DNA from: Candidatus Shapirobacteria bacterium
GTDB taxonomy: Bacteria > Patescibacteriota > Microgenomatia > UBA12405
Assembly: GCA_041661765.1 (NCBI GenBank)
Contig: JBAZTV010000003.1
Span: 143,914-207,913 of the forward strand
DNA: 64,000 nt
Direction: 5' to 3'
Below are positions 40,937 to 64,000 of this stretch, piece by piece. Below the pieces are notes generated by a model that did not search any database, had not been told where the DNA came from, and was given only the letters and a program-made list of their open reading frames with translations. The translations under genes were made by a program, and so were the position numbers. Each line of letters begins with the position of its first letter. Positions within the stretch are counted from its first letter, which is position 1.

Positions 40937-41051
40937 AACCCACCCTGCTAAAAGACTATTCCTTTTTTTTCAAAATCCACCCCTACCCCTCCTTTGACTT
41001 AAAGGAGGGGTTTATTATTTATAATGTAATTTAAATTACTTATAATAAATA

Positions 41052-41462
41052 ATGAGACATATTAGTCCTATTGAGGCAATGACAAAAAGAGGTAATTTTA
41101 AATATCTGAAAGAGTTAAGATTACTTGCTAGACAAAACAGAAAAAACCCAACAAAATCGGAATTGTTAATTTGGAATATTATTTTAAAAAATAAACAAAC
41201 GGGTTATTTATTTTTAAGACAAAAGCCAATTGGAAGATTTATTTTAGATTTTTATTGTTCCAAATTATTATTAGCTATTGAAATAGATGGTGATTCACAT
41301 GATAAAAAACAATTTTTAGATAAAAGCAGAGATTTATATTTAGAGCAAAGAAAAATTAAAACAATCAGATTTAAAAATGAGGAAGCGTTGAATAATATTA
41401 AAGAAGTTAAACAAGATTTATCTGAAATAATTTCCAACAGAAAACAAGAATTAAAGTTTTAA
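41052..41462 (+). CDS. DUF559 (Vsr-like / PD-(D/E)xK-type) endonuclease-domain protein
   Basis: KSELLIWNIILKNKQTGYLFLRQKPIGRFILDFYCSKLLLAIEIDGDSH...DKSRDLYLEQRKIKTIRFKNEEA follows the DUF559 layout (R..P...E..LW...L......F.RQ..IG.YI.DF.C...L.IE.DG..H). Confidence 0.8.
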   Translation: MRHISPIEAMTKRGNFKYLKELRLLARQNRKNPTKSELLIWNIILKNKQTGYLFLRQKPIGRFILDFYCSKLLLAIEIDGDSHDKKQFLDKSRDLYLEQRKIKTIRFKNEEALNNIKEVKQDLSEIISNRKQELKF

Positions 41463-44138: not shown

Positions 44139-45116
44139 GTGCCCATATTAAAACAAAGTGCCCTGTCAAGGGAAAGGTGGTACGAAGTACCAAAGGGTTT
44201 AAAACAATTTGTGTATAATAATTTAATGCCACTTTTTTTATTATTATTTTTATCCCTGCTTTCCCCTTTTCAAGTCCAAGCTCAAACTTTTACTGATTCT
44301 CCATCCGTTTCTGTTTCCGCCGCCATCGGCGAAAACGAAGTCACTATCTTTGGTTACACCTCTCCCAATTCAAAAGTTGAATTAACTGGTATTAATATTT
44401 ATTCCCTCGATTACAGTGATGACACTGGTTATTTTAGATTTAATAGTTTAGTTTTACCTAGAAATTCTTCCGAGCTTTGTCTTCAGTCTAAAGATGATTC
44501 CAATCGTTCTTCATCTCTAATTTGCACTCCTCCACCACCCTCCACCAATTACCACACCGACATCGGTCCAATTATTCTCCCTCCTACCGTCTCCTTAGAA
44601 CAAGACAATATTAATCCCAATTCTACTGTTATCTCATCTGGCCAAAGTATTCCCAAATCAACTGTCACTGTTTATTTTTACAAAGTCGACGATTCCGCTC
44701 AATCTTTTCCTCGCTCCGTCGAAGCTTATTCACTACCAAAAATTGAAACCACCACCGATGAAAAAGGCAATTATAATATCAATCTTCCCACTGCCTATTC
44801 CAGTAATTACCGTCTCTACACATCAGTTACATACGATAATAATTTTTCCCCAAAATCTAATACCCTCTTATATACCATGCCTTCTCTTTTCTGGCTCTTC
44901 CTTCAACAACACGCTTATCTTACAGTTCTTCTACCCATCTTTATTTTTTCTCTTATCTTATTTTTTATTCTTATATTCATACAGACAGGGCATCGCCCCA
45001 TCTCTATCGTTCATTTTTTCCCAGCTCTCCGCACCTCATATCCCGCCATCAAAACCCAACATTTCCCCATTCTTTATCCCGATCATTTGCCTCGCAATTT
45101 TAAAATAGCAAAATAA
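44139..45116 (+). CDS. Hypothetical surface protein with a C-terminal hydrophobic anchor. The 5' end reads through a repeat, so the real start is probably near 44229.
   Basis: Internal signal-like MPLFLLLFLSLLSPFQVQAQT. C-terminal LPIFIFSLILFFILIFIQTG. Confidence 0.4.
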   Translation: MPILKQSALSRERWYEVPKGLKQFVYNNLMPLFLLLFLSLLSPFQVQAQTFTDSPSVSVSAAIGENEVTIFGYTSPNSKVELTGINIYSLDYSDDTGYFRFNSLVLPRNSSELCLQSKDDSNRSSSLICTPPPPSTNYHTDIGPIILPPTVSLEQDNINPNSTVISSGQSIPKSTVTVYFYKVDDSAQSFPRSVEAYSLPKIETTTDEKGNYNINLPTAYSSNYRLYTSVTYDNNFSPKSNTLLYTMPSLFWLFLQQHAYLTVLLPIFIFSLILFFILIFIQTGHRPISIVHFFPALRTSYPAIKTQHFPILYPDHLPRNFKIAK

Positions 45117-45335
45117 AATTAATTAAACCCTAACCCTACCCTTTCCCTTGACAGGGCAAGGGTTAAAAAAAATGCTCCCTTGTCAAGGGGAGATGTCCGA
45201 CCTTGCCTGCCGGCAGGCAGGAGGGCTGAGGGGTTTTAAATAAAGAGAGAAGGTGGGTTTTAATTTCTTTTTATAATAAATATTACAATTACTTGATATA
45301 TTTTATTAATATTATTCTCATTTATACTTTAAATT

Positions 45336-45725
45336 ATGCTTAGTCAAAATGATTTAATTCAAATTAAAACAGTTGTTGAAAATGTTTTTGATGACAAATT
45401 TAAAAAAGAACTTCAACCTATTAATAATAGATTAGACAAAATGGATGAAAGGTTCGATAAAATCGATAATAAATTAATTGAACATGATACTAAGTTCGAT
45501 AAAATGGATGCCAGATTTGACCAAGTCGACGAAAGGTTTAAACAAATTGATATTAAATTTGACAAGATTAATTCTAAGTTTAAAAAAGTAGACAAACAAC
45601 TCAAAAAAATTCAAAAAGATCTCACCACCACTATAAAATACTTCGACAATAATTGTCTTGCACACAAAAAACATCTCGACAGAATAGAACAGCATCTCGG
45701 TTTACCTCAATTTCCAATTGTTTAA
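45336..45725 (+). CDS. Small heptad-repeat coiled-coil protein (129 aa). Paralog of 62074-62343.
   Basis: Tandem 7-aa repeats of the form (I/M/V)D.(R/K)FDK (RLDKMDERFDKIDNKL...FDKMDARFDQVDERFKQIDIKFDKINSKFKKVDKQLKK). Conserved C-terminus TTIKYFDNNCLAHKKHLDRIEQHLGLPQFPI. Confidence 0.5.
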   Translation: MLSQNDLIQIKTVVENVFDDKFKKELQPINNRLDKMDERFDKIDNKLIEHDTKFDKMDARFDQVDERFKQIDIKFDKINSKFKKVDKQLKKIQKDLTTTIKYFDNNCLAHKKHLDRIEQHLGLPQFPIV

Positions 45726-45939
45726 ATCCCTTTTTATTTTAAAACCCTCCGTGACCAAAACCCCTCTGTTCCCCGCGTCAGCGGGGAACAACAATTCTTT
45801 TTTATTCAAAACCTCTCAGTCTCGCTTCGCTCGCCAGCTCCCCTTAACAAAGGGAGCAGCCTAAAAAATAAAGACTTTCTCCCTTGATAAGGGAGAATCC
45901 CGGTTTATCCGGAAGAGGGATTTGTTGTATACTTAATTA

Positions 45940-46353
45940 GTGAAAAACAAATATCTATTTATCATCGCCTTTTTATCCCTCGCCTTAATTGCTTCTTTAT
46001 ATTTAGTTCTTCGAACCACTATTTTTGTTAAAAAAGCCGCTACCGACAATCAATCCACTGTTGCTCTAGAAAATTCATATCTTTTTGTTTCCCCTCTCCA
46101 AGCCAAAGCCGACGGCAAAGAAAAAATGCGTCTCACCATTTTTATTCTCGATGGCCGAGGCATGGGAATCGCCAATCAAGTTGTCAGCCTCTCAACTTCT
46201 TCCAAAATTAATATCACCAGTATTCAAAATCAAACCGACGAATCAGGCAAAGCCGTTTTCGATTTAACATCCAGTTCTGCCGGTAAATTCAATGTCTCTG
46301 CCCAAACTGGCGACGCCACCATTCCCCAACAAGTTAAGGTGGTGTTTTATTAA
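45940..46353 (+). CDS. Small membrane-anchored protein with a bacterial Ig-like (Big-like) domain. Paralog of 63034-63486.
   Basis: N-terminal TM. AKADGKEKMRLTIFILDGRGMGIANQVVSLS...DESGKAVFDLTSSSAGKFNVSAQTGDA matches the Big_1 / invasin-type Ig-like domain pattern. Confidence 0.45.
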   Translation: MKNKYLFIIAFLSLALIASLYLVLRTTIFVKKAATDNQSTVALENSYLFVSPLQAKADGKEKMRLTIFILDGRGMGIANQVVSLSTSSKINITSIQNQTDESGKAVFDLTSSSAGKFNVSAQTGDATIPQQVKVVFY

Positions 46354-46654
46354 ACAAAACCCCCTCCAGCTACTGCGGGAAGGGATTTTTTAGTCTCACC
46401 AAATCGTTTTTTACACGAATCGAATTTGCCAAACAACTAAACATAACAATTAACAACACCATTGTCAATTAGATATTGTTATTTAATTCACAAAAACCAT
46501 CGTGGATCTAGGGAGAATTGAACCCCCGAGACCAAATTTGGCAAATTCGATTCCCAACCTGGTAGGCCCACGACAACTTATATTAACACAATATTGTAAT
46601 TATTATTACAGAATATATTTAATTAAATAAAAATTATTTTGTTTTGGGCGATTC

Positions 46655-46814
46655 ATGAATCGCCCCTACATGTTATCCTTTTTATATATAATGCCTCGTA
46701 AAAAACCCTTTCAAAATCCCTCTAAATCTCCCTTTGACTTAAAGGGAGACTTTAAAAACAAAATTTTATTATCCCCTCCTTTAAGTCAAAGGAGGGGTAG
46801 GGGTGGATTTTGAC
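46655..46814 (+). promoter_or_regulatory. Conserved ~155-bp upstream cassette of the giant-protein genes. Contains a putative -10 (tatatataat) and two hairpins. Copies at 56474-56632 (near-identical) and 51820-51925 (partial).
   Basis: ...catgttatcctttttatatataatgcctcgtaaaaaaccctttcaaaatccctctaaatctccctttgacttaaagggagactttaaaaacaaaattttattatcccctcctttaagtcaaaggaggggtaggggtggattttgacATG. Confidence 0.6.
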
Positions 46815-49800
46815 ATGAAATCAAAAAAATTAGATATTAATAATTGGTCATATAAATCCTTATTAATAATTTTATTTTTTCTATTAATTGGTGTTGTTGT
46901 TTTATGGAAATTTGTTTTACCAAATCATAAAGTAGAGGCTAGTTGGTGGAATGATGGTTGGAATTATAGAAAAGCGGTTAGTATTAGTAATACATCAGGA
47001 TCTGATTTAACTGATTTTCAAGTTTCTTTATCTATAGGTACCAGTGCTTTAATTGCTTCCGGTAAAATGCAAAGTGATTGTGATGATATTAGAGTTACAG
47101 ATATTAATGGTAATTTGTTGCCGTATTGGATAGAAGAAAACAATCCTGGTTGTAATCAATTAACCGATACCAAAATTTGGATAAAGGCTAATTCCCTCCC
47201 CGTTTCCGATGCTACTATCTATATTTATTATGGCAACACTTCCGCTCCCTCATCTCAAAGTGGTACTAATACTTTTGAGTTTTTTGATGATTTTAATGAC
47301 GCCAGTAAAACAAACACCAACTGGACCGCAACCGGAACCGGATATACCATTACTGGCGGCAATCTTTACCATTCTACTACATTAGAACCAACCAATAATT
47401 TTACCTCTTATACTATTAATAATAGTTCTGGATTTACTAACGGAATAATTGAATCAAGAATGAAACCAGCTAGTTGTGGAAATTCTTACGGTAAAAGTAT
47501 TATCGCCAGATATACTGATGACAATAATCAATACATAGCTGGATTAGAAGCTTGGACTGGTGGTTACACTCACATCGGTAGAAGAGTAAGCAGTACCTGG
47601 ACAAACATCGATCAAGATATATTAGCCTGCAGTACCAGTACTTGGTATCAATTAAAATGGACTCTCAACGGATCTAATCAGTACTTAACAATTAATGGAG
47701 TTGCTTCCAGTGGTGTTGACACTAATCTTTCTTCTGGAAAAGTTGGCGTTTCTGTTGATAACCGAGAAACAGCAACAGGTGCTTATTGGGATTATATTTT
47801 TACTCATAAATACTCATCAGTTGAACCCACCGCCTCTCTCCAATCAGAAGAAGCCGGCGGCGGACCAATTGCTTATTGGAAATTTGACGAAGGCACCGGA
47901 AACAATGCTTACGATTCATCTAGTCAAAATAATACAGGATCAATGTTAAGTGCCCCTATTTGGAAAAATGAAAGTGAATGTGTTTCTGGAAAATGCTTAG
48001 CTTTTGATAATGTTGATGACGGCGTCAGTATTAATAAAAATTTTGTTGGTTTAACCGACTACACTATGTCAGCTTGGGTTAATATCAAAGGCACACACCA
48101 ACACTACACTGGCGCTATTATGTCTTCTGGTGATTGGAATACCCAATATTGGGTATTCGGTATTAGTCAAGCCAATGATGCCATAAACATGTGTGCCGGC
48201 AGTTGTTCTATAAATTATGCCTTTCAGTTAAATAAATGGACCCATGTAACTGTCACTAGAAGTGGTAGTCAATATACACTTTATATTAATGGAAAAAATA
48301 GTGGTACTTATTCTGGCAGTTCATCTGCTTTGGTCAGTAGTGCCACCAACACCACTATTGGTCGGGAAACTTATGGCGGTGGTTATTTTGCCTTTAATGG
48401 CTGGATCGACGAACCAAAAATTTATCCTTACGCCCGCACCGCCGACCAAATCAAACTCGATTATAATTCTCGCGGATCTTCCAAAGGCACTTCCGCTAAT
48501 TTAGGTGGCGCCGGAACTGATAACAATTTATCTAACGGTTTGGTTGGTTATTGGAAAATGGACGAAGGCACTATGGGAAGCGGAACCACTTTTACAGACT
48601 CATCAGGAAATGGAAATACCGGCACTGGCGTTAGTAGCGTTGCCGTATCAACAGGAGAATTTGGTAATGGTGTTGATATTCCAGGTCCTGGAGGCAGTGG
48701 TTTAGGATCAGTAATTAATGTTAATGATTCTGATTCTTTAGATATTGGTTATACCACACCAATGACAATTTCATTTTGGCTAAATGCCGATTCAACTGCC
48801 TGTGGTGCCATTATAAAAAAATCCGGTCTTTGGGAAATATATCGTTGTTCAGCTAATTTAACTATCCGTTTTGATGGTTATGATCAAGGTAGTTCATTTA
48901 ATTTAAATAACGGTCAATGGTATTTAGTTACAATGACACGTGATCCTTCTACTAACACCACAAAAGTCTATATAAACGGACAACAAACAGATAGTTGGAC
49001 ATATACTATTGGTACCCCAAATTATTCCGGAGGCATGGGAATAGGTGCTTACAATGGCGGATCTTATGCCATCGATGGCAAACTTGACGAAGTCCGCGTC
49101 TACAACCGCGCCCTTTCCCCTTCCGAAGTTTCTCAACTTTATGAATTCGCCCCCGGGCCAATCGGTTATTGGGATTTTAATGAAGCTTCTGGCACCGTCG
49201 CCAATGATAAAAGTGGAAATGGAAAAAATTTAACCACATACAATTCTCCAATTTGGAATCAAGGAAAAATTGGGTCTGCTTTAGATTTTAATGGTTCGAC
49301 TCAATATGCCAGAAGAACTAGTGAAACTAGTTTTCAAAGAGTAAATGGACAAGAAATATCCGTTTCTGTTTGGATATACCCCAAACGCTTAGGCGGACAA
49401 TATCAAGATATTGTCGCCAACAGATCTAGTTCTGGACTTAATTGGCTAATTTATCAACACACTACTGATGGATCAATACAATTCCATGGTTCTGCTCAAA
49501 ATAAATCTACCTATATTCCACCACTTAATCAATGGACTCATATCGAAACAACAATAGATGCAGTAGGAAATTATAAACTTTATGCTAATGGACAGATAGT
49601 TCAAAGTCTAACAGGATACACCTTTGGTACTAGCGGTATCACTGAATTAACTGTCGGCAATTTTAGTGCAAACGAATATTATTTAGGCAAAATAGACGAA
49701 GTCAAAATCTACAACTACGCCCGCACCCAAAAACAAATTATTGAAGATATGAACGCCAACCACCCCGCCGTCTCAGCCAATTCTGCCATCGCTTATTACA

Positions 49801-51809
49801 AATTCGACGAAGGCTACGGCACCACCACCTCAAATTGGGGCAACGGTGGTTCTGCTTTAAATGGAACATTAACTAATATGGCTTCACCTGCTATTACAAC
49901 TTCCGGATGGAATAATTCTGGAAAATTTGGAAAAGCACTTTCATTTGATGCGTCGGATGATTATGTAGATGCAGGTAATGCAGCGAGTTTGACTTTTGGT
50001 TCAGGTCAAAGTTTTACTTATGGAGCTTGGATATATAGTAAAAACCCTCTTGGACGTTGGCAAGGAGTTGTTTATCATGGAGATGTTGGTCAATCTCAAG
50101 GACATTTAGGACTTAATCCCTCAGGCCAACTCTCAGGTGGGACAGGAGATGGCAGCAGTTGGCAAACTCATGAAACAAGCTATTTAATTCCACAAAATAG
50201 GTGGACATATGTTGCTATTGTTTTAAATAGAAACTCAAACATATTAAAATTTTATGCAAATGGTGTTGAGGTAGGAAGCTATTCACATAGTTATGTTCCT
50301 TCGGCGCCAACCATTGGTTTAAGAATAGGAGATGGTAATACGGGTGGTTCAGAACATTTTGATGGTCTCGTTGACGAAGTCAAAATCTACAATTATGCTC
50401 TCACCGCCGATGAAATCAAACAAGATTATAACCAAAGTTCTGCCCTACAAATGGGACAAACTTCTCAAACCATCAGCGGCACCACCACCTCTCTCGATTA
50501 TTGCATCCCCGGCGATACTTCAGCCTGCGCCTCCCCCGTCGCCGAATATAAAATGGATGAAGGCATCGGCACCACCGCTTACGACACCAGTGGTAATAAT
50601 ATAAACGCTGGATTTAATAGTACTCCAACATGGACCCAAGGAAAAATCGGAAAATCATTAAATTTCAATGGCACAACAAATTATTTAACCAACACCAGAA
50701 AAGTTATCACTGGAGGTTTAACCTTTGGGGTTTGGATTAAAACCACCAGCACCGATTCTACTACTACTTATGATGGAAACGCAGCCCAAAATATAATTGG
50801 TGATTCTACTGGCGGTGTCGCTCTTGGTTTTGGAGTTCATGGAGGAAAAGTACGATATCAACACTATACCAGTGCTTGGTATAGTGTTTTAGGTTCAACC
50901 TCAGTCAATGATGGTCTATGGCACTACATCAGCGTCACTCACAATTCATCAACTGGAGCTATTGTTATTTATGTTGATGGCAAACAAGATGGCAGCGGAA
51001 CTCTTGCATATAACGGATCAAGTGCTTATGATATCATCGCTCGTGGTTATGGCGGAGATTATTTTACTGGACAATTAGACCAAATTCGCATCTACAACTA
51101 CGTTCGCACCCCCGCCCAAATCGCCTACGATTACAATAAAGGCGGACCAGTTGGTTGGTGGAAATTTGACGAATGCCAAGGCAATGTTGCCTACGATTGG
51201 AGCGGAGTCGGCAACACCGGCACCATTATTATTGGCGCCTCGGGCACCCAAAATTCCCTTGGTACTTGTGCTGTCGGCACTTCCGCCGCCTGGACCAACG
51301 GCACCAGTGGAAAAATTAATTCTAGTTTAAATTTTGATGGAGTGGATGATGTCGTAGATATTGCAGACAATGCGACCTTAAATGGAACCTCTTTTACTTT
51401 TTCGGCTTGGATATACAGTAATAATTTTAATCAAGAACAAGTATTATTCTCTAATACAAACGCTAGTATTGGATGGCACATTGAAGTTTATCAAGGTAAA
51501 ACAGTAATGCAAGTTTGGCCCGGAGGTGGTTACACAACCTCAATAAAAACCATGTCAAATAATACTTGGTACCACATCGTAATAACTTACAATAATGGTT
51601 CAATTATTTACTATCTCAATGGAGCTCCAAATGGTACTGCTACTCAAACATTTTCTGTCCCTACTGGTCTTACTAAAAGAATAGGACTTTTCTACAATGG
51701 TACTTATCCTTTTGTTGGCAAAATTGATGATGTTCGCATCTACAATTACACTCTAACCTCAGAACAAATAAAAACTCTTTATAACGGCGGAGCGGTTTCG
51801 TTTAACTAA
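46815..51809 (+). CDS. Giant membrane-anchored surface protein 1 (about 1664 aa from ATG 46815; the ORF opens at GTG 46803). N-terminal TM, DUF2341-like domain, then about 6 LamG/Concanavalin-A-like modules.
   Basis: TM LLIILFFLLIGVVVLWKFVL. WWNDGWNYRKAVSI...DFQV...DCDDIRVTDINGNLLPYWIE...IWIKANSLP...IYIYYGN matches the DUF2341 pattern. Repeated modules GPI(A/G)YWKFDEG.G..A.D.S...N.G..... W..GK.G.AL.FDG.DD... with conserved linkers (K/R)IYNYARTPAQIAYDYNKG and KIYPYARTADQIKLDYNSRGSS. Confidence 0.85.
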   Translation: MKSKKLDINNWSYKSLLIILFFLLIGVVVLWKFVLPNHKVEASWWNDGWNYRKAVSISNTSGSDLTDFQVSLSIGTSALIASGKMQSDCDDIRVTDINGNLLPYWIEENNPGCNQLTDTKIWIKANSLPVSDATIYIYYGNTSAPSSQSGTNTFEFFDDFNDASKTNTNWTATGTGYTITGGNLYHSTTLEPTNNFTSYTINNSSGFTNGIIESRMKPASCGNSYGKSIIARYTDDNNQYIAGLEAWTGGYTHIGRRVSSTWTNIDQDILACSTSTWYQLKWTLNGSNQYLTINGVASSGVDTNLSSGKVGVSVDNRETATGAYWDYIFTHKYSSVEPTASLQSEEAGGGPIAYWKFDEGTGNNAYDSSSQNNTGSMLSAPIWKNESECVSGKCLAFDNVDDGVSINKNFVGLTDYTMSAWVNIKGTHQHYTGAIMSSGDWNTQYWVFGISQANDAINMCAGSCSINYAFQLNKWTHVTVTRSGSQYTLYINGKNSGTYSGSSSALVSSATNTTIGRETYGGGYFAFNGWIDEPKIYPYARTADQIKLDYNSRGSSKGTSANLGGAGTDNNLSNGLVGYWKMDEGTMGSGTTFTDSSGNGNTGTGVSSVAVSTGEFGNGVDIPGPGGSGLGSVINVNDSDSLDIGYTTPMTISFWLNADSTACGAIIKKSGLWEIYRCSANLTIRFDGYDQGSSFNLNNGQWYLVTMTRDPSTNTTKVYINGQQTDSWTYTIGTPNYSGGMGIGAYNGGSYAIDGKLDEVRVYNRALSPSEVSQLYEFAPGPIGYWDFNEASGTVANDKSGNGKNLTTYNSPIWNQGKIGSALDFNGSTQYARRTSETSFQRVNGQEISVSVWIYPKRLGGQYQDIVANRSSSGLNWLIYQHTTDGSIQFHGSAQNKSTYIPPLNQWTHIETTIDAVGNYKLYANGQIVQSLTGYTFGTSGITELTVGNFSANEYYLGKIDEVKIYNYARTQKQIIEDMNANHPAVSANSAIAYYKFDEGYGTTTSNWGNGGSALNGTLTNMASPAITTSGWNNSGKFGKALSFDASDDYVDAGNAASLTFGSGQSFTYGAWIYSKNPLGRWQGVVYHGDVGQSQGHLGLNPSGQLSGGTGDGSSWQTHETSYLIPQNRWTYVAIVLNRNSNILKFYANGVEVGSYSHSYVPSAPTIGLRIGDGNTGGSEHFDGLVDEVKIYNYALTADEIKQDYNQSSALQMGQTSQTISGTTTSLDYCIPGDTSACASPVAEYKMDEGIGTTAYDTSGNNINAGFNSTPTWTQGKIGKSLNFNGTTNYLTNTRKVITGGLTFGVWIKTTSTDSTTTYDGNAAQNIIGDSTGGVALGFGVHGGKVRYQHYTSAWYSVLGSTSVNDGLWHYISVTHNSSTGAIVIYVDGKQDGSGTLAYNGSSAYDIIARGYGGDYFTGQLDQIRIYNYVRTPAQIAYDYNKGGPVGWWKFDECQGNVAYDWSGVGNTGTIIIGASGTQNSLGTCAVGTSAAWTNGTSGKINSSLNFDGVDDVVDIADNATLNGTSFTFSAWIYSNNFNQEQVLFSNTNASIGWHIEVYQGKTVMQVWPGGGYTTSIKTMSNNTWYHIVITYNNGSIIYYLNGAPNGTATQTFSVPTGLTKRIGLFYNGTYPFVGKIDDVRIYNYTLTSEQIKTLYNGGAVSFN

Positions 51810-51978
51810 TTTTCCCCTCCTTGTCAAAATCCCTCTAAATCTCCCTTTGACTTAAAGGGAGACTTTAAAAAAAATTATTATCCCCTCCTTTAAGTCAAAG
51901 GAGGGGTAGGGGTGGATTTTGAAGAAAGGGAGGATACCGGTTTATCCGGAGGAAGGATTCAAATGTTAAACTAAATTA

Positions 51979-54900
51979 GTGTCCAAACTTTCTTACAAAA
52001 CCCTTTTAATAATTCTCTTTTTTCTATTAATTGGTGTTATTGTTTTATGGAAATTTGTATTACCCAATCATAAAGTAGAAGCTAGTTGGTGGAATGATGG
52101 TTGGAATTATCGAGTCGCTGTTAATATCGGTAACACTGGCAGTTCACTCACTAATTTTCAAATCCCCATCAGCGTTGGAACATCTGCTCTAATTAATTCC
52201 AGTAAAATGCAATCCGATTGCGATGATATTCGTGTCGTTGATCAAAATGGTAATTTATTAACTTACTGGGTATCTGGCTGTGGTACCACTTCCACTCAAA
52301 TATGGCCTAAAATACCATCAATTCCCAATGGCGGCGCCACCGTTTATGTTTATTATGGCAATCCTTCAGCCACCTCAGTCAAATCCACCGTTGGCACCAG
52401 TGATTATCCTGGATTAAGTTGTAAATCAATTTTAGATGCCGGCAATTCCACTGGTAATAATACTTATTGGATTGATCCAACCAACGGTAACATTTCCGAT
52501 AAATTTCAAGCCTATTGCGATATGACCAATGATTCTGGCGGTTGGATGTTAGTCACCCAAAGTATGATTAGTAGTGAAGTTGGAACTTCCGTCACCACTA
52601 CAAAAACAACTAATATAAATGGCGGAGTCGATATTTCTAATTCAATCACTCATTCAGGATGTGGAGCCAGTATTTATCATCGAGTTTTATTTACAGATAT
52701 TATTCCCTGGACTAAAATTAAAGCCGACTATGAATTTTTGGGTGGTAATTCTTGTTGGAGTATCTTTGGAAATACTAGCTATACAGGTGGTAGCACTAAT
52801 TTAATTGCTTTTAGTTCAGGCACTGATACCATCCATAATCAAGTAAAAATGGGTGGATCAAATGGTGATAATTATGATGGTATTAACTCTCGTTGCGATA
52901 ACGAAACTTTTAATTTTTGGCATTCCAATCAAGGTGTTGGCACCACCAGAAGTGCTCAAGTTATCTTAAGAAGAAACAGTATGTCTTCTCTGGCTGGTCT
53001 TGGAACCGGAGCTGCTTGTAGTACTGCTGGTTATCCTTGGAAATATAAAAATATTTATGTTCGTGAAGATGTCATGACTTTTGCCGCCACTGCCGGAACC
53101 CCAGCCACTGAAGAAGTCGGCGGTGGCCCAATTGCTTATTGGAAATTCGACGAAGGCACCGGCACCACCGCTTACGATTCAACCACTAATCAAAATAACG
53201 GCATATTCAGCACCGGATCCTCTGCCCCCACTTGGCAAATCGAAGATCAATGTATTTCTGGAAAATGCCTATCCTTTAATAATGTAATGGGTAATAAAAT
53301 AAGCAGTAATTTTCGATATGACAATAATCAATATTTCACCATATCAGCCTTTATTAAACCAACCAGCACCAGTTCTTTCAAAATTATTGCTGGTACTGCC
53401 ATTGGAAATAATATTAACAGTGGATTAACCTTAAACGTTAACAATCTCTGTTTTCATGATTATTCTACTTTCAGCGGCGACAGAGAAATTTGTTCGTCCA
53501 ATAATCCTATTCAACTTAACACATGGCAACACATCGCCCTCATTTACAGTAATGGATCACTCGAATTATTTGTTAATGGAAAAAGTGTTAAAACCGGTTC
53601 ATTTACCATTACCAGTTCTGGCAACACTACTTTAATAGGAGGTTCATCAGCTTTCGATTATAGTGGTGGTCGATTTTTTAGTGGTTTCATTGATGATATT
53701 AAAATCTATCCCTACGCCCGCACTGCAGATCAAATCAAATTAGACTACAACTCTCGCGGATCTTCTAATGGTTCCTCCGTTAATCTCGGAGTCCAATCTT
53801 CCACCGCTCCTGATCTAAATTCTAAACTAATCGGTTATTATAAATTCGACGAAGGCAACGGAAACAATATTAATAACACTAAGTCAACATCTTATGATGG
53901 AACCAAATACAACACCACCAATTGGGATAATAATGGTAAATATAATAAAGCTTTATGGTTTGATGGCACTACCGCTCAATTAATTATTAATAATACTAGT
54001 GGATGGAGAAACAATGGTAACGACATGTCTTTATCAATTTGGATAAAACCCGATTCTTCTGATGATGGTGGTTATATTTTTTCAAAACCCTGGAATGGTA
54101 GTGGCGGTTACAATTATGGATTAACATCAAGTGGTGGAGCTAATCCATCATTTTCTTTTACTCTTACCGGCGCTTCTAGTTTTAGCTTAGGATCAAATAA
54201 AACTGTATCCAGTAATCAATGGCATCAAATAATTATAACTGTCAACAATACCACCAAATTAGTCAAATTTTACATCGATGGAAAAATTACAAATAGTAAT
54301 ACTCACACCATCACCGATTGGACACCTAGTGGTGGAGATGTTAGTGTTAATTTCGTTTTAGGTTGTATCTATCCATATGCAAGCAATTCTTGTGCCGGAG
54401 CTACCACCTATGACTTTAAAGGTTATATGGATGAATTTAAATATTACAATACAGTTTTAACCGACGAAGAAGTTAAACAAGATTATAACCAAGGATCGGC
54501 AATTTCTTTTGGTTCTACCAATCAAACCATCGGCGGCACCACCACTTCACTAGAATATTGCATTCCCGGCGATACGTCAACATGTTTAGCACCAGTCGCC
54601 GAATGGAAAATGGACGAAAAAACTGGCATCACCGTCAAAGACACCAGCGGCAATAATAATAACGGAACTATTACTGGCGCCACTTGGACCACTGGCCAAA
54701 TTGGCGCTGGTTTAAAATTTTCCGGCTCAGGCCAAGCTGTATCTGTTGTAGACAATTCCACGTTAAAACCAACCGCCGCCATCACCACTGAGGCTTGGTT
54801 TAATACTATCGATAAAACTGTTACCAGCCAAAGAATATTATCCAAAACCGAAGGTAGCGGCTATCAACTTAGTATTAATGAAAACAGTGCTTGTCCATCC

Positions 54901-55908
54901 AGTACTTTATGTTTTTTAATCAATATTAATGGTACCTATTATTCCGCTACTTACGCCAGTAGTAATTTATCTAATAACACTTGGTATCATATTGCCGGAT
55001 CTTATGATGGTACAACAGTTAAATTATTTCTAAATGGTTCCAATATTGGCACCACTGCCACAATTAGTAATACTATTACTCAAGCCGCTTACAATTTATG
55101 CATTGGTAGTGAAACCGATGCTGGATCTTGCACTTCTGGATTTTTTAATGGCAAAATTGATCATGTCAAAATCTACGACTATGCCCGCACCCCCGCCCAA
55201 ATCGCCTACGACTACAATAAAGGTGCCCCAGTTGGATGGTGGAAACTCGACGATTGCCAGGGTTTGACCGCGTTTGACTCATCTGGATTAGGAAATAATG
55301 GTGCCATTTCCATCGGCCCCAGTGGAACTCAAAACTCTGCCGGCACTTGTCAAATCGGCACTTCCGCCGCCTGGACCAATGGCGCCACTGGAAAAATTAA
55401 TTCTAGTTTAAATTTTGATGGCAATGATGATTATATTTCAACTTCATATATATCAGGTATTCAATCATTTATTACCATTAGTGCATGGATCAAACCAAAC
55501 GCATTAACCAGTACATACGAAATTTCAAATCAAGGCCAATGGGACGGAGGACCTTGGACAGGTTGGCGATTCAGACAAATAAATAATTATATTAACTTTA
55601 AACTTGGCGATAACACTTCTAATGCATATGAAGCATCAGGTGGAACACTTATACAAAATAGTTGGCAACATGTAGTTGGAATTTGGGATGGCAGCTATAT
55701 TCGTTTATATATAAATGGTAAAGAAGTAGTTAAAACTGCTAAATCATTCACTTATGTTGGAAATACTGGTTCTCATTCAATAGGTAAATATGGCGGATCT
55801 GCATATTTTTTTAAAGGCCAAATTGACGATCTTCGCATCTACAACTACGCTCTCACTCCAGAACAAGTCAAAACTGTTTTTAATAATGGAGCGGTGAATT
55901 TTCAATAA
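51979..55908 (+). CDS. Giant surface protein 2 (1309 aa). Same architecture, with a unique ~230-aa insert carrying a fibrinogen-related-like motif. The N-terminus is degenerate: no ATG, first possible start GTG.
   Basis: Shares TM plus DUF2341-like N-terminus and the C-terminal ...IDDLRIYNYALTPEQVKTVFNNGAVNF. Insert: GLSCKSILDAGNSTGNNTYWIDPTNGNISDKFQAYCDMTNDSGGWMLVTQ. Upstream ATG 51963 is out of frame and followed by a stop. Confidence 0.8.
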   Translation: MSKLSYKTLLIILFFLLIGVIVLWKFVLPNHKVEASWWNDGWNYRVAVNIGNTGSSLTNFQIPISVGTSALINSSKMQSDCDDIRVVDQNGNLLTYWVSGCGTTSTQIWPKIPSIPNGGATVYVYYGNPSATSVKSTVGTSDYPGLSCKSILDAGNSTGNNTYWIDPTNGNISDKFQAYCDMTNDSGGWMLVTQSMISSEVGTSVTTTKTTNINGGVDISNSITHSGCGASIYHRVLFTDIIPWTKIKADYEFLGGNSCWSIFGNTSYTGGSTNLIAFSSGTDTIHNQVKMGGSNGDNYDGINSRCDNETFNFWHSNQGVGTTRSAQVILRRNSMSSLAGLGTGAACSTAGYPWKYKNIYVREDVMTFAATAGTPATEEVGGGPIAYWKFDEGTGTTAYDSTTNQNNGIFSTGSSAPTWQIEDQCISGKCLSFNNVMGNKISSNFRYDNNQYFTISAFIKPTSTSSFKIIAGTAIGNNINSGLTLNVNNLCFHDYSTFSGDREICSSNNPIQLNTWQHIALIYSNGSLELFVNGKSVKTGSFTITSSGNTTLIGGSSAFDYSGGRFFSGFIDDIKIYPYARTADQIKLDYNSRGSSNGSSVNLGVQSSTAPDLNSKLIGYYKFDEGNGNNINNTKSTSYDGTKYNTTNWDNNGKYNKALWFDGTTAQLIINNTSGWRNNGNDMSLSIWIKPDSSDDGGYIFSKPWNGSGGYNYGLTSSGGANPSFSFTLTGASSFSLGSNKTVSSNQWHQIIITVNNTTKLVKFYIDGKITNSNTHTITDWTPSGGDVSVNFVLGCIYPYASNSCAGATTYDFKGYMDEFKYYNTVLTDEEVKQDYNQGSAISFGSTNQTIGGTTTSLEYCIPGDTSTCLAPVAEWKMDEKTGITVKDTSGNNNNGTITGATWTTGQIGAGLKFSGSGQAVSVVDNSTLKPTAAITTEAWFNTIDKTVTSQRILSKTEGSGYQLSINENSACPSSTLCFLININGTYYSATYASSNLSNNTWYHIAGSYDGTTVKLFLNGSNIGTTATISNTITQAAYNLCIGSETDAGSCTSGFFNGKIDHVKIYDYARTPAQIAYDYNKGAPVGWWKLDDCQGLTAFDSSGLGNNGAISIGPSGTQNSAGTCQIGTSAAWTNGATGKINSSLNFDGNDDYISTSYISGIQSFITISAWIKPNALTSTYEISNQGQWDGGPWTGWRFRQINNYINFKLGDNTSNAYEASGGTLIQNSWQHVVGIWDGSYIRLYINGKEVVKTAKSFTYVGNTGSHSIGKYGGSAYFFKGQIDDLRIYNYALTPEQVKTVFNNGAVNFQ

Positions 55909-55948
55909 TTTATAAACTCACCCTACCCTCCTTTAAAATAGGGAACAA

Positions 55949-56395
55949 TTATTTATTGTTTAAAACCCTCCGCCCTTTGGGCACCTCCCTTGACAGGGAG
56001 GCTTTTCTTTCTTGAATATTTTTTATTATTTCATTTTTAACTTTTTCCAATTCATTTAATATTTCTTTGTTTTTAAATCTTATGGTTTTAATATTTAAAC
56101 AATTTAAAAATTTATCTCTCTTTGAGTCTTGTTCTTGTTTTTTAAGATGATATCCACCATCAATTTCGATCACTAATAATAATTCAGAACAATAAAAATC
56201 TAAAATAAATCTGTCTAATGGTTTTTGTCTGGTAAATTTATAATTCATTGGTCTATTTTTCAAGAATTCATACCAAATTTTTGATTCAGCTTTAGTCATT
56301 TTATGTCTATTTATTTTGGCTGCCCATCTTAATTGTTCCAAATATTTTAAATTTCCCTTTTGAGTCATTATTTCAACACATGTAATATCTCTCAC
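55949..56395 (-). CDS. DUF559 endonuclease-domain protein. Paralog of 41052-41462. The 3' end reads into a flanking hairpin repeat.
   Basis: KAESKIWYEFLKNRPMNYKFTRQKPLDRFILDFYCSELLLVIEIDGGYH...DSKRDKFLNCLNIKTIRFKN. Flanked by inverted copies of aaaaccctccg..cacctcccttgacagggaggctt at 55961-56005 and 56408-56462. Confidence 0.8.
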   Translation of the reverse strand: MRDITCVEIMTQKGNLKYLEQLRWAAKINRHKMTKAESKIWYEFLKNRPMNYKFTRQKPLDRFILDFYCSELLLVIEIDGGYHLKKQEQDSKRDKFLNCLNIKTIRFKNKEILNELEKVKNEIIKNIQERKASLSREVPKGRRVLNNK

Positions 56396-56632
56396 AAATA
56401 ATTATTAGGATTTAAAGCCTCCCTGTCAAGGGAGGTGGCGAGTGAAACGAGACGGAGGGTTTTGAATTAAAAATGAATCCCCTCCCCATGTTATCCTTTT
56501 TATATATAATGCCTCGTAAAAAACCCTTTCAAAATCCCTCTAAGTCTCCCTTTGACTTAAAGGGAGACTTTAAAAACAAAATTTTATTATCCCCTCCTTT
56601 AAGTCAAAGGAGGGGTAGGGGTGGATTTTGAC

Positions 56633-59600
56633 ATGAAATCAAAAAAATTAGATATTAATAATTGGTCAGTAAAGAGTTTATTAATTATTTTATTTTTCTT
56701 ATTAATTAGTATTGTTATTCTTTGGAAATTTGTCTTACCAAATCATAAAGTAGAGGCTAGTTGGTGGAATGATGGTTGGAATTATAGGAAAGCGGTTAGT
56801 ATTAGTAATACTGGTGCTGCTCAAACCAACACCCAAATTAAAATCCTTAATAATTATGATCTAAGTGCTCTAGTTACTGCTGGAAAAATTCAAGCCGATT
56901 TAGACGATTTAAGATTTACTGACATCAATGGAAATTTACTAAATTATTGGATTGAAGATTCCACTAATAATAGTGTTGATATTTGGGGTGTTGTTTCTTC
57001 ACTTCCAACATCAGGTACTACTATTTATATGTATTATGGAAATCCTTCAGCAACCAGTGTCAGTAGCACTTCAAATATAACCATCGGTGGCACAATGACA
57101 TCTATCGGTGGCTATCGTATTCACACATTTACTAGTAATGGAACCTTAACAAACGCCAATAATACCAATGCCGAAGTTTTAGTTGTCGCCGGTGGCGGCG
57201 GCGGCGGATCTTCATCTGGTGTTGGTGATGGTGGTAGTGGCGGCGGAGGCGCTGGAGGTCTAACCTATAATTCATCTTATGCCCTAACTCAAGGACAAAT
57301 TATTAATATCACTGTTGGTGTCGGTGGAACCAATGGTGCCACTTCTTCACATCAATCAGGGACAGATGGTGGCAATTCTATTTTTGGAGCTATTACTACA
57401 AACGGTGGTGGAGGCGGTGGAACCACTGGTGTAAATGGTCGACCTGGGGGTTCCGGTGGTGGCGGTGGTTACAATGGTTATACTACCATTCGCTATGGTG
57501 GAAGTGGTGTTGTTGGAATTGGAAATTCAGGTGGAGCTACTACTGATTTAGCTTCAGCATCAGGAGCTGGTGGAGGTGGAGCCGGAGGAGTTGGTGGAAA
57601 TAATATAACAGGTCATGTTGGAGGAAATGGTGGTTTAGGAATTAATTATTCTATAACTGGAATCGGGGTAACCTATGCCAGTGGTGGTCGTGGCGGCGGC
57701 GGCGCCGCCCCTGTTAACAAAACAGCCAATACTGGTAATGGCGGTGATGGAGCTTATTCTACCAGTATACCCACCAGTGGTGCTTCCGGCATTGTTGTCG
57801 TCAGATTTTTATCTGGAACCGCCAGCACCCCTTCCACCGAAGAAGCCGGCGGTGGCCCAATTGCTTATTGGAAATTCGACGAAGGCACCGGCACTTCTGC
57901 TTATAATTCAACTACAAGCAACCATAATGGTGCTCTTCAAAACGGAACTTCTTGGGCCTCTGAAGATCAATGTGTTTCAGGAAAATGTTTAAAATTTGAT
58001 GGAGTAAATGATTATGTTAGTGCTGGGGTTGGAACCGATTATCTCCCCATGAATACTTTTTCTATATGTGCTTGGGCAAAATCTCCAGGCCTTGCCTCTG
58101 GTATGAGTTTAAATGGAATAATAAGTTACACCTATGGTTTAACAATGTCCATTGACGGATCTGGACATTTTCTTAGTAGAGTAGATGATGGATCAAATAT
58201 AGTTGGTGTAACTGAATCATCTCAAAATCTTTATGATAATAAATTTCATCATCTATGTTTTACATTTGATGGTACTAATCGTTATATGTATATTGACGGT
58301 AAATTAAAAGTAACAACCGCAACTACATGGAACAATAGATATTCAAGTAATTCAGTAAATATCGGACACGAAAACAATAATTCACCTATTTATAAATTTA
58401 ATGGTTTCATTGATGAACCAAAAATTTATCCCTACGCCCGCACCGCCGCTCAAATCAAACTCGACTACAATTCCCGCGGTTCTTCCAAAGGCACTTCCGC
58501 CAATCTCGGATCCGCCGCTAGTGATAATAATTTATCTGATGGATTAGTCGGTTATTGGAAAATGGACGAAAATACAGGCATAAGTATTACTGATAGTTCA
58601 GGATTAGGTTACACCGGAATTTTTGGAACTGGAGATTCTGCTCCTTCTTGGTCAAGTGGAAAATTCGGGGTTGGCACCAGTTTTGACGGTAGTAATGATT
58701 ATATTGACGCCGGAAATGTTTTAAATATGGGCACTAATGATATGACCATATCAACGTGGATAAAAACCACCAATTCTAGTTCCACTGCTCAATATATAGT
58801 AAGTAAATCTTTAGCCGCTGCTCAAAATTATCGCTATGGTATTTTTACTAGAAATGGTACTGCTGGAATTTTTATGCAAGGTGACGGTGGAGCTGATGTT
58901 GTGGTTTATGGTACTAAAAATATAGCCGATGGAAATTGGCATAATATTACATATATTTTTAACAGAGATGATAAAGCCGATATTTATGTTGATGGAATTT
59001 ACGATGTGGGGCAAACAATATCTCAATGGAACGGAAAAAATATGGTTTCTATTAATCCTTTTAGGATCGGTGCCTACACTGCAGCTGACAACACAGGTAT
59101 TACTTCCTCATTTAGTGGTTTTATAGATGAAACTCGAGTTTACAACCGCGCCCTTTCCCCCACTGAAGTTTCTCAACTTTACGAATTCGCCCCCGGACCA
59201 ATTTTTTATTGGGATTTTAACGAAGGAATCGGTACCACTGCTTTTGACAAACAAAACCACACAAATTTACCTATTTCAAATGCCACCTATACATCGGGTA
59301 AATATGGCGGTGGATTAAATTTCAATGGAAATGCTTGGTTAGAAAAATCAATTTCTCCATCAATTGCCGCCGCTCAAGATTATACCCAATGTCTTTGGTT
59401 TAACACTTCAACCAATGCCACTAGACAAATATTAATTGATGATTCTAATCAATGGGAACATTGGATCGCTATTAACACCAATAAAACAATTTCTGGTTGT
59501 TATTATAATGCTTCTCAAATGTGTGCCACTTCTACTAACATCATTAATTTAAACACCTGGAATTATGTTTGTTTAGCCGTTCAATCTGGACAAAAAATGA

Positions 59601-61783: not shown

Positions 61784-61795
61784 AATTTCTAGTCT

Positions 61796-61869
61796 GTAGA
61801 GACGTAGCGCGCTACGTCTCTACAAAAATAATATTCTCCCAGTAGAGACGCCACGCATGGCGTCTCTAC
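61796..61869. repeat. Two tandem family-1 REP-like palindromes (GTAGAGACG-N8-CGTCTCTAC) immediately after giant gene 3
   Basis: gtagagacgtagcgcgctacgtctctac at 61796-61823 and gtagagacgccacgcatggcgtctctac at 61842-61869. Identical or near-identical copies at 8184-8210, 9956-9983, 32926-32953, 34264-34291, 34386-34413, 44075-44102, 62594-62621 and 63520-63547. Confidence 0.9.
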
Positions 61870-62073
61870 CAAAAACCACTTTCTTTATTATTTAAAACCC
61901 TCCGTCTCTTCGAGCCACCTCCCTTGACAGGGAGGCTTCAGCTCACCAAATAAAGGTCCCCTGTCAAGGGGAAGGTGGTACGAAGTACCAAGGGGTTTTG
62001 TATTCTTTTTATGATAAATATTACAATTATTTGATGTATTTTATTAATATTATTCTCATTTATACTTTAAATT

Positions 62074-62343
62074 ATGCTTACCCAACAAGATTTATCTCAA
62101 TTTAAAAAAATACTCCAACCCATCAACGACAGATTAGATAAAATTAACGATAAGTTAATTGAACATGATAAAAAGTTTGACAAAATCGATGCTAAGTTTA
62201 AAAAAATAGACAAACAACTCAAAAAAATTCAAAAAGATCTCACCACCACTATAAAATATTTCGATAATAATTGTCTTACACACAAAAAACATCTCGACAG
62301 AATAGAACAGCATCTCGGTTTATCACAATTTCCAATCATCTAA
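62074..62343 (+). CDS. Small coiled-coil protein, short paralog (89 aa) of 45336-45725 with fewer heptad repeats
   Basis: MLTQQDLSQFKKILQPINDRLDKINDKLIEHDKKFDKIDAKFKKIDKQLKKIQKDLTTTIKYFDNNCLTHKKHLDRIEQHLGLSQFPII. The 5' flank (~90 bp) is ~95% identical to the 45245-45335 flank. Confidence 0.5.
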   Translation: MLTQQDLSQFKKILQPINDRLDKINDKLIEHDKKFDKIDAKFKKIDKQLKKIQKDLTTTIKYFDNNCLTHKKHLDRIEQHLGLSQFPII

Positions 62344-63033
62344 ATTTAAAACGCCCCCCCCATAATATTCATTTGTTCCATCCCTCACAAAATTTTCTCT
62401 ACGATATATCCCCTACGACCTAAATCCTAATTTTAACCATTCCTTAAACACCAAACCATTCTTTTATACCGATTAGCAAACAGACCAAAATTCTGCCACC
62501 AAAAATCCCTCTAGTACATCAAAAATAAACAAAACTAAAACTAACCCATCAAAAATTTAATTTTAAAAAGTATCTTATAAAAAGAAATAATCTGTAGAGA
62601 CGCCATGCATGGCGTCTCTACAATATTTAAATATGTCTCTACTAATTTAAATATGTCTCAGCAAAAATTATTTTCACACTTTACAAACACATCCTATAAT
62701 TATTTTTAGTTATATACATCACATCTCTTTATCTACAATCTATCACCTACGACCTAAGATTCATTTATACCCTTCTCTTAAACACAAAAACGCCCTCCAC
62801 TCCCCTTTAGCACCACCGTGTCCAATCTGCCAACAAAAATAAAATAAATACATCATAAACAAACATTTAAAAACATTGTGACTCAAAAATTAAATTGAAA
62901 AAAATAGCTTATATTTTAAAATCCCTCTCTAGTTTCAATCTTCCCCCTGACCCCCTTCTTTGACAAGACGGGGGAAATAATTGTCTTTTTTAAAGTCCCT
63001 CTTGTCAAAGAGGGATTTAGGGAGATTGAATCC

Positions 63034-63486: not shown

Positions 63487-64000
63487 AAAAAAATAATTGT
63501 TTAAAACCCACTTGACTCTGTAGAGACGTAGCGCGCTACGTCTCTACTTAATAAACCCGATGTCTCTATTAATCAAACCTGATTCCCTTCCTTTTAGCAC
63601 CAACTACCAACCACTGCTAATCTCTAATAAATTTAAAAACACACCTAAAAACAGGCATATTTAACCTAATTTTTAAACTTAAAAATCAAAAAATAATCCC
63701 AAAACTAATTTTTTCTCCCAAAAAGGATACAAATTATCACCCTCTAGCTACTTATATATCAATATAATTCATTATATCTTAAACAAAATTTATTAAAAAT
63801 TAACATTAATTTAATTTTTAATTTAAAAAAAATTTATTTTTTTACCAAAAAATTCACTTCCTAATTACCTTTTTTAAATCATCTTTGTACCCCTAAAGTA
63901 TATCATTTAATATCTTTTAGAGTAAACCGCATTTCTCCGCATTAACAAATTTTTACCGGCTCGTATTAGGTTATATTTTGATTTTATTTATACCACATTG

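Follow-up and report, generated by a model that had tools for sequence, protein, structure and literature searches.

The three tandem LamG genes in a 64,000-nt stretch of a Candidatus Shapirobacteria contig (JBAZTV010000003.1, positions 143,914 to 207,913 of the forward strand; this whole stretch is called the window below) raise the question of why a nearly identical sequence with two hairpins stands in front of each of them. A preliminary description had taken this sequence for a promoter or leader cassette dedicated to three giant genes, and had offered recent gene conversion as an alternative. All three genes lie on the plus strand, and domain search identified DUF2341 and six Laminin_G_3 domains in gene 1 (46815-51809, 1664 aa from its present ATG), DUF2341 and Laminin_G_3 in gene 2 (51979-55908, 1309 aa, GTG start), and DUF2341, Gly_rich_2 and Laminin_G_3 in gene 3 (56633-61783, 1716 aa), making them large rather than giant; the open reading frames (ORFs) of genes 1 and 3 are intact. 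The repeat itself was borne out. Positions 46655-46954 and 56473-56772 (a start previously given as 56474, off by one) are 93% identical across 300 nt, three-way alignment showed a single-base difference in the 182 nt of 46669-46850 and 56487-56668, and a shorter version precedes gene 2 (shared sequence 51819-51922, element proper 51824-51922). Our comparisons suggest that the cassette very probably belongs to a family of dispersed palindromic doublets, which are non-autonomous and correspond to a ~520-bp, DUF559-carrying element without its gene.

The core unit common to the three copies is 99-103 bp long, has inverted ends (TCAAAATCC...GGATTTTGA) and consists of two ~42-nt arms with one hairpin each. 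The arms of the doublet lie in inverted orientation and are inverted copies of one another (left half TCAAAATCC-CTCTAAATCTCCCTTTGACTTAAAGGGAGA; reverse complement of the right half, CAAAATCCACCCCTACCCCTCCTTTGACTTAAAGGAGGGGA), with hairpin stems of 9-10 bp and TTGACT in each loop. Copy 1 (46711-46813) is made up of a left arm (46711-46753), an A/T spacer (46754-46769) and a right arm (46770-46813), the arms being recovered by an arm hidden Markov model (HMM) with E values of 3e-12 and 7e-13. Copy 2 (51824-51922) begins 15 nt past the gene 1 stop, ends 56 nt before the gene 2 GTG and has a spacer 4 nt shorter than that of copy 1, and copy 3 (56529-56631) differs from copy 1 by one A>G change. 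Hairpin 1 (TCTCCCTTT-GACTT-AAAGGGAGA, 46727-46749) and hairpin 2 (CCCCTCCTTT-AAGTC-AAAGGAGGGG, a 10-bp stem at 46773-46797, 51882-51906 and 56591-56615) are perfect, as had been noticed before. The same account gave every copy a TATATAAT box and a ...gacATG junction, both of which are missing from the copy before gene 2, where the shared sequence is bounded exactly by TCAAAATCC (51824) and GGATTTTGA (51922). A 15-nt core, CCTTTGACTTAAAGG, occurs seven times exactly in the window, and allowing up to three mismatches gave 17 matches against 3.1 expected, a number reached in none of 100 shuffles.

Members of the doublet family occur across Ca. Shapirobacteria and related genomes, both between genes and in frame within them. 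Dispersal was examined by pattern scans with either hairpin as the query, followed by the arm HMM on the window and the fetched stretches. The scan of species-representative genomes returned 14 stretches (L001-L014), most of them from Ca. Shapirobacteria metagenome-assembled genomes (MAGs) and with several contigs per MAG, and a separate scan of metagenomes returned 35; copies were present on four contigs of a single MAG. The arm census detected 95 arms in 410 kb of DNA from Ca. Shapirobacteria and relatives, made up of the 64-kb window and 52 fetched loci (L001-L052). Counting arms no more than 100 nt apart as a doublet and arms 470-600 nt apart as a full-length element, we found ~21 gene-less doublets, nine full-length elements with a DUF559 gene between the arms and ~15 single arms in frame within long ORFs. 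The doublets were intergenic and adjoined the starts or stops of unrelated genes in either orientation. The hosts of the single arms included Ddl, TsaD, Pyr_redox_2 (thioredoxin-reductase-like), a GT4 glycosyltransferase (twice), a TraG-like ATPase (twice) and others; among the examples at L001:4570-4609, L006:2695-2736 and 5710-5752, L014:2140-2305, L039:6752-6945, L002:7504-7697 and 5593-5635 of the window, which also include a PrgI-like protein, the arm would add peptides such as QNPSKSPFDLKGDLK. The window example lies on the minus strand in the D-Ala-D-Ala ligase gene and encodes ..PNPSFDERRGKDLE.., as located by the arm HMM. An exact inverted copy of hairpin 2 with TAGGGGTGGATTTTGA, that is, of the right arm, is found at 40971-41013, distant from all three LamG genes, and a diverged doublet of the same architecture in inverse orientation (62937-63031) abuts the stop of a Big_1 gene (63034-63486, minus strand). 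No LamG N-terminus was present in the 14 stretches L001-L014, and arm conservation was equal in every context, with no link to LamG genes.

These results bear directly on the cassette as a device of the large genes: dozens of unrelated contexts contain the same unit, and an orthologue of gene 1, described below, lacks it. The preliminary description had itself named a scatter of the hairpins without positional bias to the 5' ends of these genes as what would reduce them to a dispersed palindrome family, and such a dispersal is largely what was found. Three of the fetched loci (L001, L009 and L010, from MAGs SRP192927_co5_99 and co6_55) are labelled as uncultured Gammaproteobacteria; their DNA has 32-35% G+C and carries the same element, with a DUF559 fragment 76% identical to that of the window, and these bins are probably mislabelled members of the Candidate Phyla Radiation (CPR) or contaminated.

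We compared the window with L017, a syntenic Ca. Shapirobacteria contig that served as an element-free reference. Its three upstream genes are 84-87% identical to those of the window, its DUF2341-LamG gene matches gene 1 at 91% but gene 3 at only 77% over the first 300 nt, and an arm search of the contig found no arm. The L017 gene starts at ...CCATGTTATCCTTTTTATATATA ATG CCT CGT AAA TCT..., the beginning of protein P0002 (MPRKSLHSSINNLSYKSLL), and has no other in-frame canonical start ahead of the membrane anchor. The window follows L017 through an identical CATGTTATCCTTTTTATATATAATGCCTCGTAAA, then has 118 extra nt (46700-46817) between CCTCGT and AAATC, consisting of AAAAAACCCTT, the 103-nt element and CATG, and then resumes with AAATCA...; the flanks of this segment are 95-98% identical to L017 upstream and 91% downstream. 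The alignment shows that, in the lineage of the window, gene 1 received an insertion of 118 nt, the doublet included, behind its fourth codon. The TATATAAT box is thus TATATA followed by the ancestral start codon ATG, with the element placed after codon 4.

The block common to gene 1 (46669-46702, plus strand), gene 3 (56487-56520) and L017 contains an extended -10-like motif, TGTTATCCT (46671-46679), which lies 11 nt before the ancestral ATG (46691-46693) and is a candidate promoter element, and codons 2-4 (MPRK). In the window the ancestral ATG opens a 40-codon upstream ORF (uORF; 46691-46813, plus strand), predicted to encode MPRKKPFQNPSKSPFDLKGDFKNKILLSPPLSQRRGRGGF and ending at a TGA (46811-46813) that is formed by the final 3 nt of the element. 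This stop is followed by a single C and then by the new ATG at 46815 in the +1 frame. The same arrangement is present in gene 3, with the ancestral ATG at 56509-56511, the uORF at 56509-56631 and the new ATG at 56633, and the gene models of both genes are corrected to an ancestral start 124 nt upstream of the present one.

Other sources of orthologues were searched as well. A protein search with a 362-aa query returned no close gene 1 orthologue, nothing being above ~50% identity; the LamG genes of L015 and L016 are without elements, and L017 alone proved to be syntenic. Exact look-up of gene 1 from ATG 46815 gave no match, and look-up from GTG 46803 gave one ENA contig, an independent assembly of genes 1 and 2 that ends inside the element. 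As is usual for assemblies at a repeat, this contig breaks within hairpin 1, and it is uninformative as to what is present or absent upstream.

The likeness of genes 1 and 3 around the insertion is of a different order from that of their bodies. Their coding sequences (CDSs) are identical over the first 36 nt, 83-85% identical over the next ~150 nt and 25-55% identical over the remainder, with islands at the repeated LamG motifs, and the near-identical 182-nt tract (one mismatch, 99.5%) runs from the left edge of the L017 homology to codon 12. The earlier contrast between conserved untranslated and diverged coding sequence thus applies to the bulk of the CDS and fails at its beginning, where the high identity continues past the ATG. 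The comparison indicates that genes 1 and 3 share their junction, from the -10-like box to codon 12, through a recent gene-conversion or duplication tract of ~180 nt, which agrees with the alternative previously offered; nothing points to promoter swapping or phase variation. Further downstream L017 matches gene 1 in some patches and gene 3 in others, indicating that the 5' ends of the LamG family recombine. Plain tandem duplication of a gene with its leader, involving neither a mobile element nor conversion, would fit three tandem paralogues with conserved 5' ends, but it is refuted by a bulk CDS identity of 25-55% beside 99.5% in the tract, by the element found elsewhere and by the empty orthologous site in L017, and the junctions at gene 2 differ as well. 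A selfish repeat combined with local gene conversion is the simpler account and replaces the regulatory one.

Gene 2 had been thought to have lost its ATG and first ~10 codons and to be either silent or GTG-initiated. GTG initiation is supported and the loss is not. Its start, GTG TCC AAA CTT TCT TAC AAA (MSKLSYK...), is common to genes A and B of locus L050 and to L025, and also matches the homologue P0005 (MSRLSYK...). In the relatives (L050 A and B; L025) the start reads GTG TCy AAA CTT with a TAAAAT/TAAACT box 6 nt upstream, and in the window (start region 51964-51981, plus strand) an extended -10-like motif, TGTTAAACT (51964-51972), with a putative promoter role, likewise precedes the GTG (51979) by 6 nt. 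The doublet occupies this site in the window and in L050 gene B, the DUF559-containing form occupies it with the same right junction in L025, and L050 gene A has the same start and no element. Between the element and the box the window has ~41-47 nt (51923-51963; AGAAAGGGAGGATACCGGTTTATCCGGAGGAAGGATTCAA) that are absent from L050 and L025; this segment contains a small CCGG-TTTAT-CCGG hairpin and a GGAGGAAGG-N6-ATG-TTA-AAC-TAA mini-ORF. The comparison indicates that gene 2 is a normal GTG-initiated gene carrying a doublet upstream of its own conserved start and -10-like box. Here the element sits upstream of the box and is probably outside the mRNA.

The nine loci with arms 470-600 nt apart have between them a DUF559 gene 73-88% identical to ORF 41052-41462 of the window. 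The product of this ~520-bp full-length element is a DUF559 protein, that is, a Vsr-like PD-(D/E)XK nuclease. Read with DUF559 on the plus strand, these elements share one order: TCAAAATCCACCCCTACCCCTCCTTTGACTTAAAGGAGGGG comes first, then an A/T-rich stretch of ~45 nt that includes TATAAT boxes and the palindrome GTAATTTAAATTAC, then the DUF559 CDS from its ATG, and last AAGTCTCCCTTTAAGTCAAAGGGAGATTTAGAGGGATTTTGA. The reading frame of DUF559 usually continues across the 3' arm (...KSPFKSKGDLEGF, then the stop) and ends at the terminal TGA. The LamG-gene cassette corresponds to the reverse complement of this element minus the gene. The window retains a remnant of the full-length form (40971-41462, plus strand), which comprises a hairpin-2-type arm (40971-41013, the right arm of the cassette in inverse orientation), the AT-rich region with GTAATTTAAATTAC and TATAAT boxes, and DUF559 (41052-41462), and which has lost its 3' arm. 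Arms of a separate family (55962-56005 and 56414-56463; AAAACCCTCCG...CCACCTCCCTTGACAGGGAGG) flank a second DUF559 gene (55949-56395, within 55949-56463 of the minus strand). Its protein is 55% identical to a relative of the first, and the TTGACA of the hairpin loop, spaced by 17 nt from an AATAAT, makes a promoter-like match (11/12) directed at the gene. A gene-less doublet of this second arm family is found at 61884-61999.

A protein-seeded search for DUF559 gave 1531 homologues at E<=1e-15, mostly from CPR bacteria, many of which have C-terminal tails resembling translated arms. Two distant DUF559 subfamilies checked in this way (L057 and L054) lie between housekeeping genes, each with its own inverted arms; those of L057 are 39 nt long, 97% complementary and have a TTGACA loop, and L054 is also armed. 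The search gave the same picture of a gene with its own arms independently of arm seeding. The DUF559 protein of the window matches PF04480, its nearest solved structure is an endonuclease-like protein (PDB 3HRL), and Pfam and NCBIfam gave DUF559 only, with no transposase domain. A published classification groups DUF559 with Vsr and the group I intron homing endonuclease 3r3p (PMC3424549).

That grouping within the PD-(D/E)XK clade, together with the occupied (L025) and empty (L050 gene B and window gene 2) states at one orthologous site, would also fit DUF559 as a free-standing homing endonuclease gene that inserts in the A/T spacer of existing doublets, the doublet being its target and spreading by some other means. 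We regard this as unlikely. The DUF559 ORF extends across the 3' arm as far as the terminal TGA and a promoter-like TTGACA lies in the loop of the 5' arm, so that gene and arms look co-adapted as one unit; each DUF559 subfamily has its own arm sequence; and homing would leave the dispersal of the doublets without explanation.

The folding of the element was examined, as had been recommended. As RNA or single-stranded DNA, the whole unit can form either two local hairpins closed by the terminal repeats, in a three-way junction, or one long hairpin of -45 kcal/mol (z = -3.3), and the element would thus be expected to be very stably structured if transcribed. The long hairpin is bordered by CAAAA and UUUU on both strands, the U-run being only 4 nt; a terminator scan made no call on the cassette hairpins, and the whole-element hairpin is followed by UUUU only. 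Stops in all frames of the right arm prevent ribosomes from reading through a complete doublet. The stems keep their pairing by compensatory changes, a real covariation that mostly separates the two arm types. Since an RNA role and a DNA-palindrome role cannot be told apart by covariation, it was not used as evidence of RNA function.

A dedicated cis-regulatory RNA of the large genes, such as a thermometer, a riboswitch-like attenuator or a protein-binding leader kept by selection, could account for the stable fold, the preserved pairing and the three near-identical copies before three paralogues. However, the unit is scattered in unrelated contexts in both orientations, is missing from the gene 1 orthologue in L017 and from the LamG genes of L015, and lies before gene 2 on the far side of a -10 box, so probably outside the mRNA, and the compensatory changes mostly split the arm types and would be shown by a DNA palindrome too. 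No Rfam family was found for the cassette at the gathering threshold or at E<=5, where the only matches were sub-threshold ones to plant microRNA precursors that reflect nothing but the long hairpin, and a tRNA search made no call near the cassette. Unlike known cis-regulatory leader RNAs, the element matches no described RNA family, and its position is neither tied to a gene family nor conserved in orthologues. We consider this explanation close to refuted.

How genes 1 and 3 are expressed across the insertion was approached through the promoters of the window. Of 48 long ORFs, 13 have a good -10 box (TATAAT-like) whose end lies 5-7 nt ahead of the first ATG, against a background of 0-2 per offset (examples are the ORF starts at 28882, 23898, 44226, 35131, 5985 and 20573), which suggests that leaderless or near-leaderless transcripts are common in the source genome. 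Many element copies elsewhere end 0-7 nt from such a box (L008, L019, L024, L028 and L049). Neither ATG 46815 nor ATG 56633 has a -10 box before it, and only 1 nt separates each from the element; the mRNAs of genes 1 and 3 would therefore have to start upstream and include the element. A sigma-70 scan found no outward-facing promoter in the element. The TTGACT in the loop of hairpin 1 faces inward, and no good -10 accompanies hairpin 1 in copies 1 and 3. A TTGACA at the junction (46810) was rejected as a promoter, having a poor -10 (GATATT) and a transcription start that would fall downstream of the sole usable start codon.

As the usual distance from a -10 box to the start codon is 5-11 nt in this genome, genes 1 and 3 may be transcribed from a few nucleotides before the ancestral ATG; L010 shows an arrangement similar to that of the TGTTATCCT motif, with TGTTATCAT and then 8 nt before the ATG. 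Quite possibly, ribosomes would load at the ancestral AUG, translate the 40-codon uORF while melting the hairpins, stop at the UGA and re-initiate 1 nt further on. Less probably, initiation would occur directly at the new ATG, with the GGGGUGG of the element, 8 nt upstream, serving as a weak Shine-Dalgarno sequence; at least one further gene (start 26542) has GGGG at a similar spacing. It is unlikely, though conceivable, that translation is crippled and that the intact ORFs merely reflect a young insertion. We infer that the doublet in genes 1 and 3 is a tolerated insertion and not a purpose-built regulator.

A selfish element may nonetheless have been exapted. In genes 1 and 3 it could act in cis as a translational-coupling or attenuator-like leader, in which translation of the uORF would open a structure of -45 kcal/mol that, left closed, would block the ATG or end transcription, and before gene 2 it might insulate the tandem genes from each other or act as a bidirectional terminator. 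The structure stops 2 nt short of the ATG and covers the Shine-Dalgarno-like GGGGTGG, the uORF stops 1 nt from the ATG of an intact gene in both cases, CAAAA and UUUU border the long hairpin on both strands, many doublets abut the -10 boxes of downstream genes, and the element is kept at the gene 2 site in three genomes. On the other hand, the same element occurs in many contexts without such a role, including within ORFs, the U-run is only 4 nt, the L017 orthologue appears to function without the element, and arm conservation is alike in all contexts and shows no LamG link. Exaptation in either form, the two roles taken jointly, therefore appears doubtful to us.

Treated as a mobile doublet, the element can be placed among known systems. 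It resembles REPIN/RAYT systems (PMC3116915, PMC3337134) in being an inverted doublet of palindromes with a possible long-hairpin fold, in the short gene (~400-450 bp here) flanked by the same palindromes, in the subfamily-specific type of palindrome (the window has two DUF559 genes and two arm families) and in the occurrence of single arms. It differs in that the gene is a DUF559 PD-(D/E)XK nuclease and not an HUH/Y1 (IS200-like) transposase, in that the arms are not strictly extragenic (~15 are in frame in ORFs, and genes 1 and 3 have the doublet within their ancestral CDS), and in having a CPR bacterium as the host.

The doublet also shares ~100-bp length, terminal inverted repeats and the lack of a transposase with MITEs (miniature transposable elements with inverted repeats) and the Correia elements of Neisseria (PMC10969869). 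As defined for MITEs (<~500 bp), it is a short non-coding unit of 99-103 bp with TCAAAATCC/GGATTTTGA ends, it has many dispersed copies within and between related genomes, and it shows insertion polymorphism (the L017 empty site; L050 gene A versus gene B). Like Correia elements, it has many copies, often directly upstream of genes with which they would be co-transcribed, and carries a -35-like hexamer; unlike in them, its TTGACT boxes face inward, not outward. Unlike MITEs, it has no parent encoding an insertion sequence-type transposase, the longer form encoding DUF559 only. A candidate target-site duplication is AAA.

The single arms recall the Rickettsia palindromic elements (PMC10969869), palindromic repeats that lie in frame in unrelated housekeeping genes and add a short peptide. 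In our case the in-frame units are ~40-nt single arms versus 100-150 bp and the complete doublet cannot be read through; host and size set the two apart, and no sequence relationship is claimed. Homing endonuclease genes (I-Bth0305I, PDB 3r3p; PMC3424549) share with the full-length form a small nuclease gene of the same structural clade and presence or absence at an orthologous site; in contrast to them, DUF559 lies outside any intron or intein, its nuclease activity is a prediction, and the structured inverted arms on either side of it occur in many copies without a gene as well. The literature searched contained no description of DUF559 flanked by such arms, of DUF559 mobile elements or of these palindromic repeats in CPR/Patescibacteria, an absence that is no proof of novelty. 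The systems nearest to the DUF559-linked palindromic doublet family are REPIN/RAYT, MITEs and Rickettsia palindromic elements.

Several observations weigh against a dispersed doublet as the whole explanation. The census covers the window, a part of the source genome, and the fetched loci. The arms are 93-100% identical between genomes versus ~80-87% for the flanking genes, which points to constraint or homogenisation. Three of the four doublets of the window, as well as those of L050 and L025, are at the 5' ends of LamG genes; we attribute this clustering to shared ancestry and gene conversion, and target preference or exaptation would be alternative causes. At the gene 1 site the possible target-site duplication is AAA only and is ambiguous, and the filler nucleotides AAAAAACCCTT and CATG at the junction are not accounted for by this reading. 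The mobility of the doublet and the action of DUF559 on DNA are predictions from sequence comparison.

With these points in mind, we tentatively put forward a wider scheme as a possibility. CPR bacteria (Shapirobacteria, Woesebacteria and relatives) might host a REPIN/RAYT-like system based on DUF559 nucleases, each encoded between its own pair of arms and maintaining or spreading doublets and single arms. These would settle at the -10 boxes of leaderless genes, in frame in housekeeping proteins and in the first codons of surface-protein genes, where re-initiation after a uORF ending in the TGA of the element would rescue translation. The data suggest that the large DUF559 family, whose 1531 homologues have no assigned function, partners family-specific hairpin doublets. 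If confirmed, this would provide a biological context for DUF559 and a non-HUH analogue of REPIN/RAYT, and would account for why short peptide insertions and contig breaks recur in CPR genomes. Re-initiation on leaderless-type mRNAs has a natural test case in the uORF-stop-ATG junction of genes 1 and 3.

The surroundings of the LamG cluster showed further differences from L017. A stretch of ~310 nt (46353-46662) is missing from L017 and contains, at 46500-46569 on the minus strand, a tRNA-like remnant or one resembling the acceptor and T arm of transfer-messenger RNA (tmRNA). Its match to the Rfam tmRNA model (15.9 bits, E 0.009) is below gathering, ARAGORN made no call, and its fold, an acceptor-like stem and a GGGGG-UUCAAUU-CUCCC arm, has a z of only -1.8. 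Also missing from L017 are ~820 nt (45108-45927) with an ORF for a 129-aa coiled-coil protein (45336-45725). A copy of this region, 86-89% identical, is found across the cluster at 61993-62345, and the three LamG genes are therefore bracketed by diverged direct repeats. Big_1 genes flank the cluster on both sides, the one at 45940-46353 on the plus strand and the minus-strand gene named above. The LamG cluster of L015 (JGI Ga0645783_00891, 153 kb), from which the twin-hairpin element is absent, encodes a 1720-aa DUF2341/Gly_rich_2/LamG protein, a Gp49/HTH toxin-antitoxin-like pair and a 1582-aa paralogue, and ends in a LamG gene broken into at least seven fragments.

Base composition also sets the cluster apart. 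GC skew is -0.17 to -0.47 over most of the window (1-46000 and 62000-64000) whatever the gene strand and ~0 across the LamG cluster (46000-62000), where G+C is 0.36-0.41 versus 0.29-0.37 elsewhere in the window. Other repeats were observed: a family of perfect palindromes, GTAGAGACG-N10-CGTCTCTAC, with 12-13 bp stems and at least eight copies (8183, 9955, 34386, 44075, 61796, 61842, 62593 and 63520); the palindrome AGGGGACAGGCATGCCTGTCCCCT, with three copies (13851, 14155 and 23725); and GGGCGATTCATGAATCGCCC at 46646, directly before the gene 1 block. At 12539-12651, upstream of ORF 12663, Rfam RF00557, the leader of ribosomal protein L10, was matched with 49.1 bits, which is above gathering.

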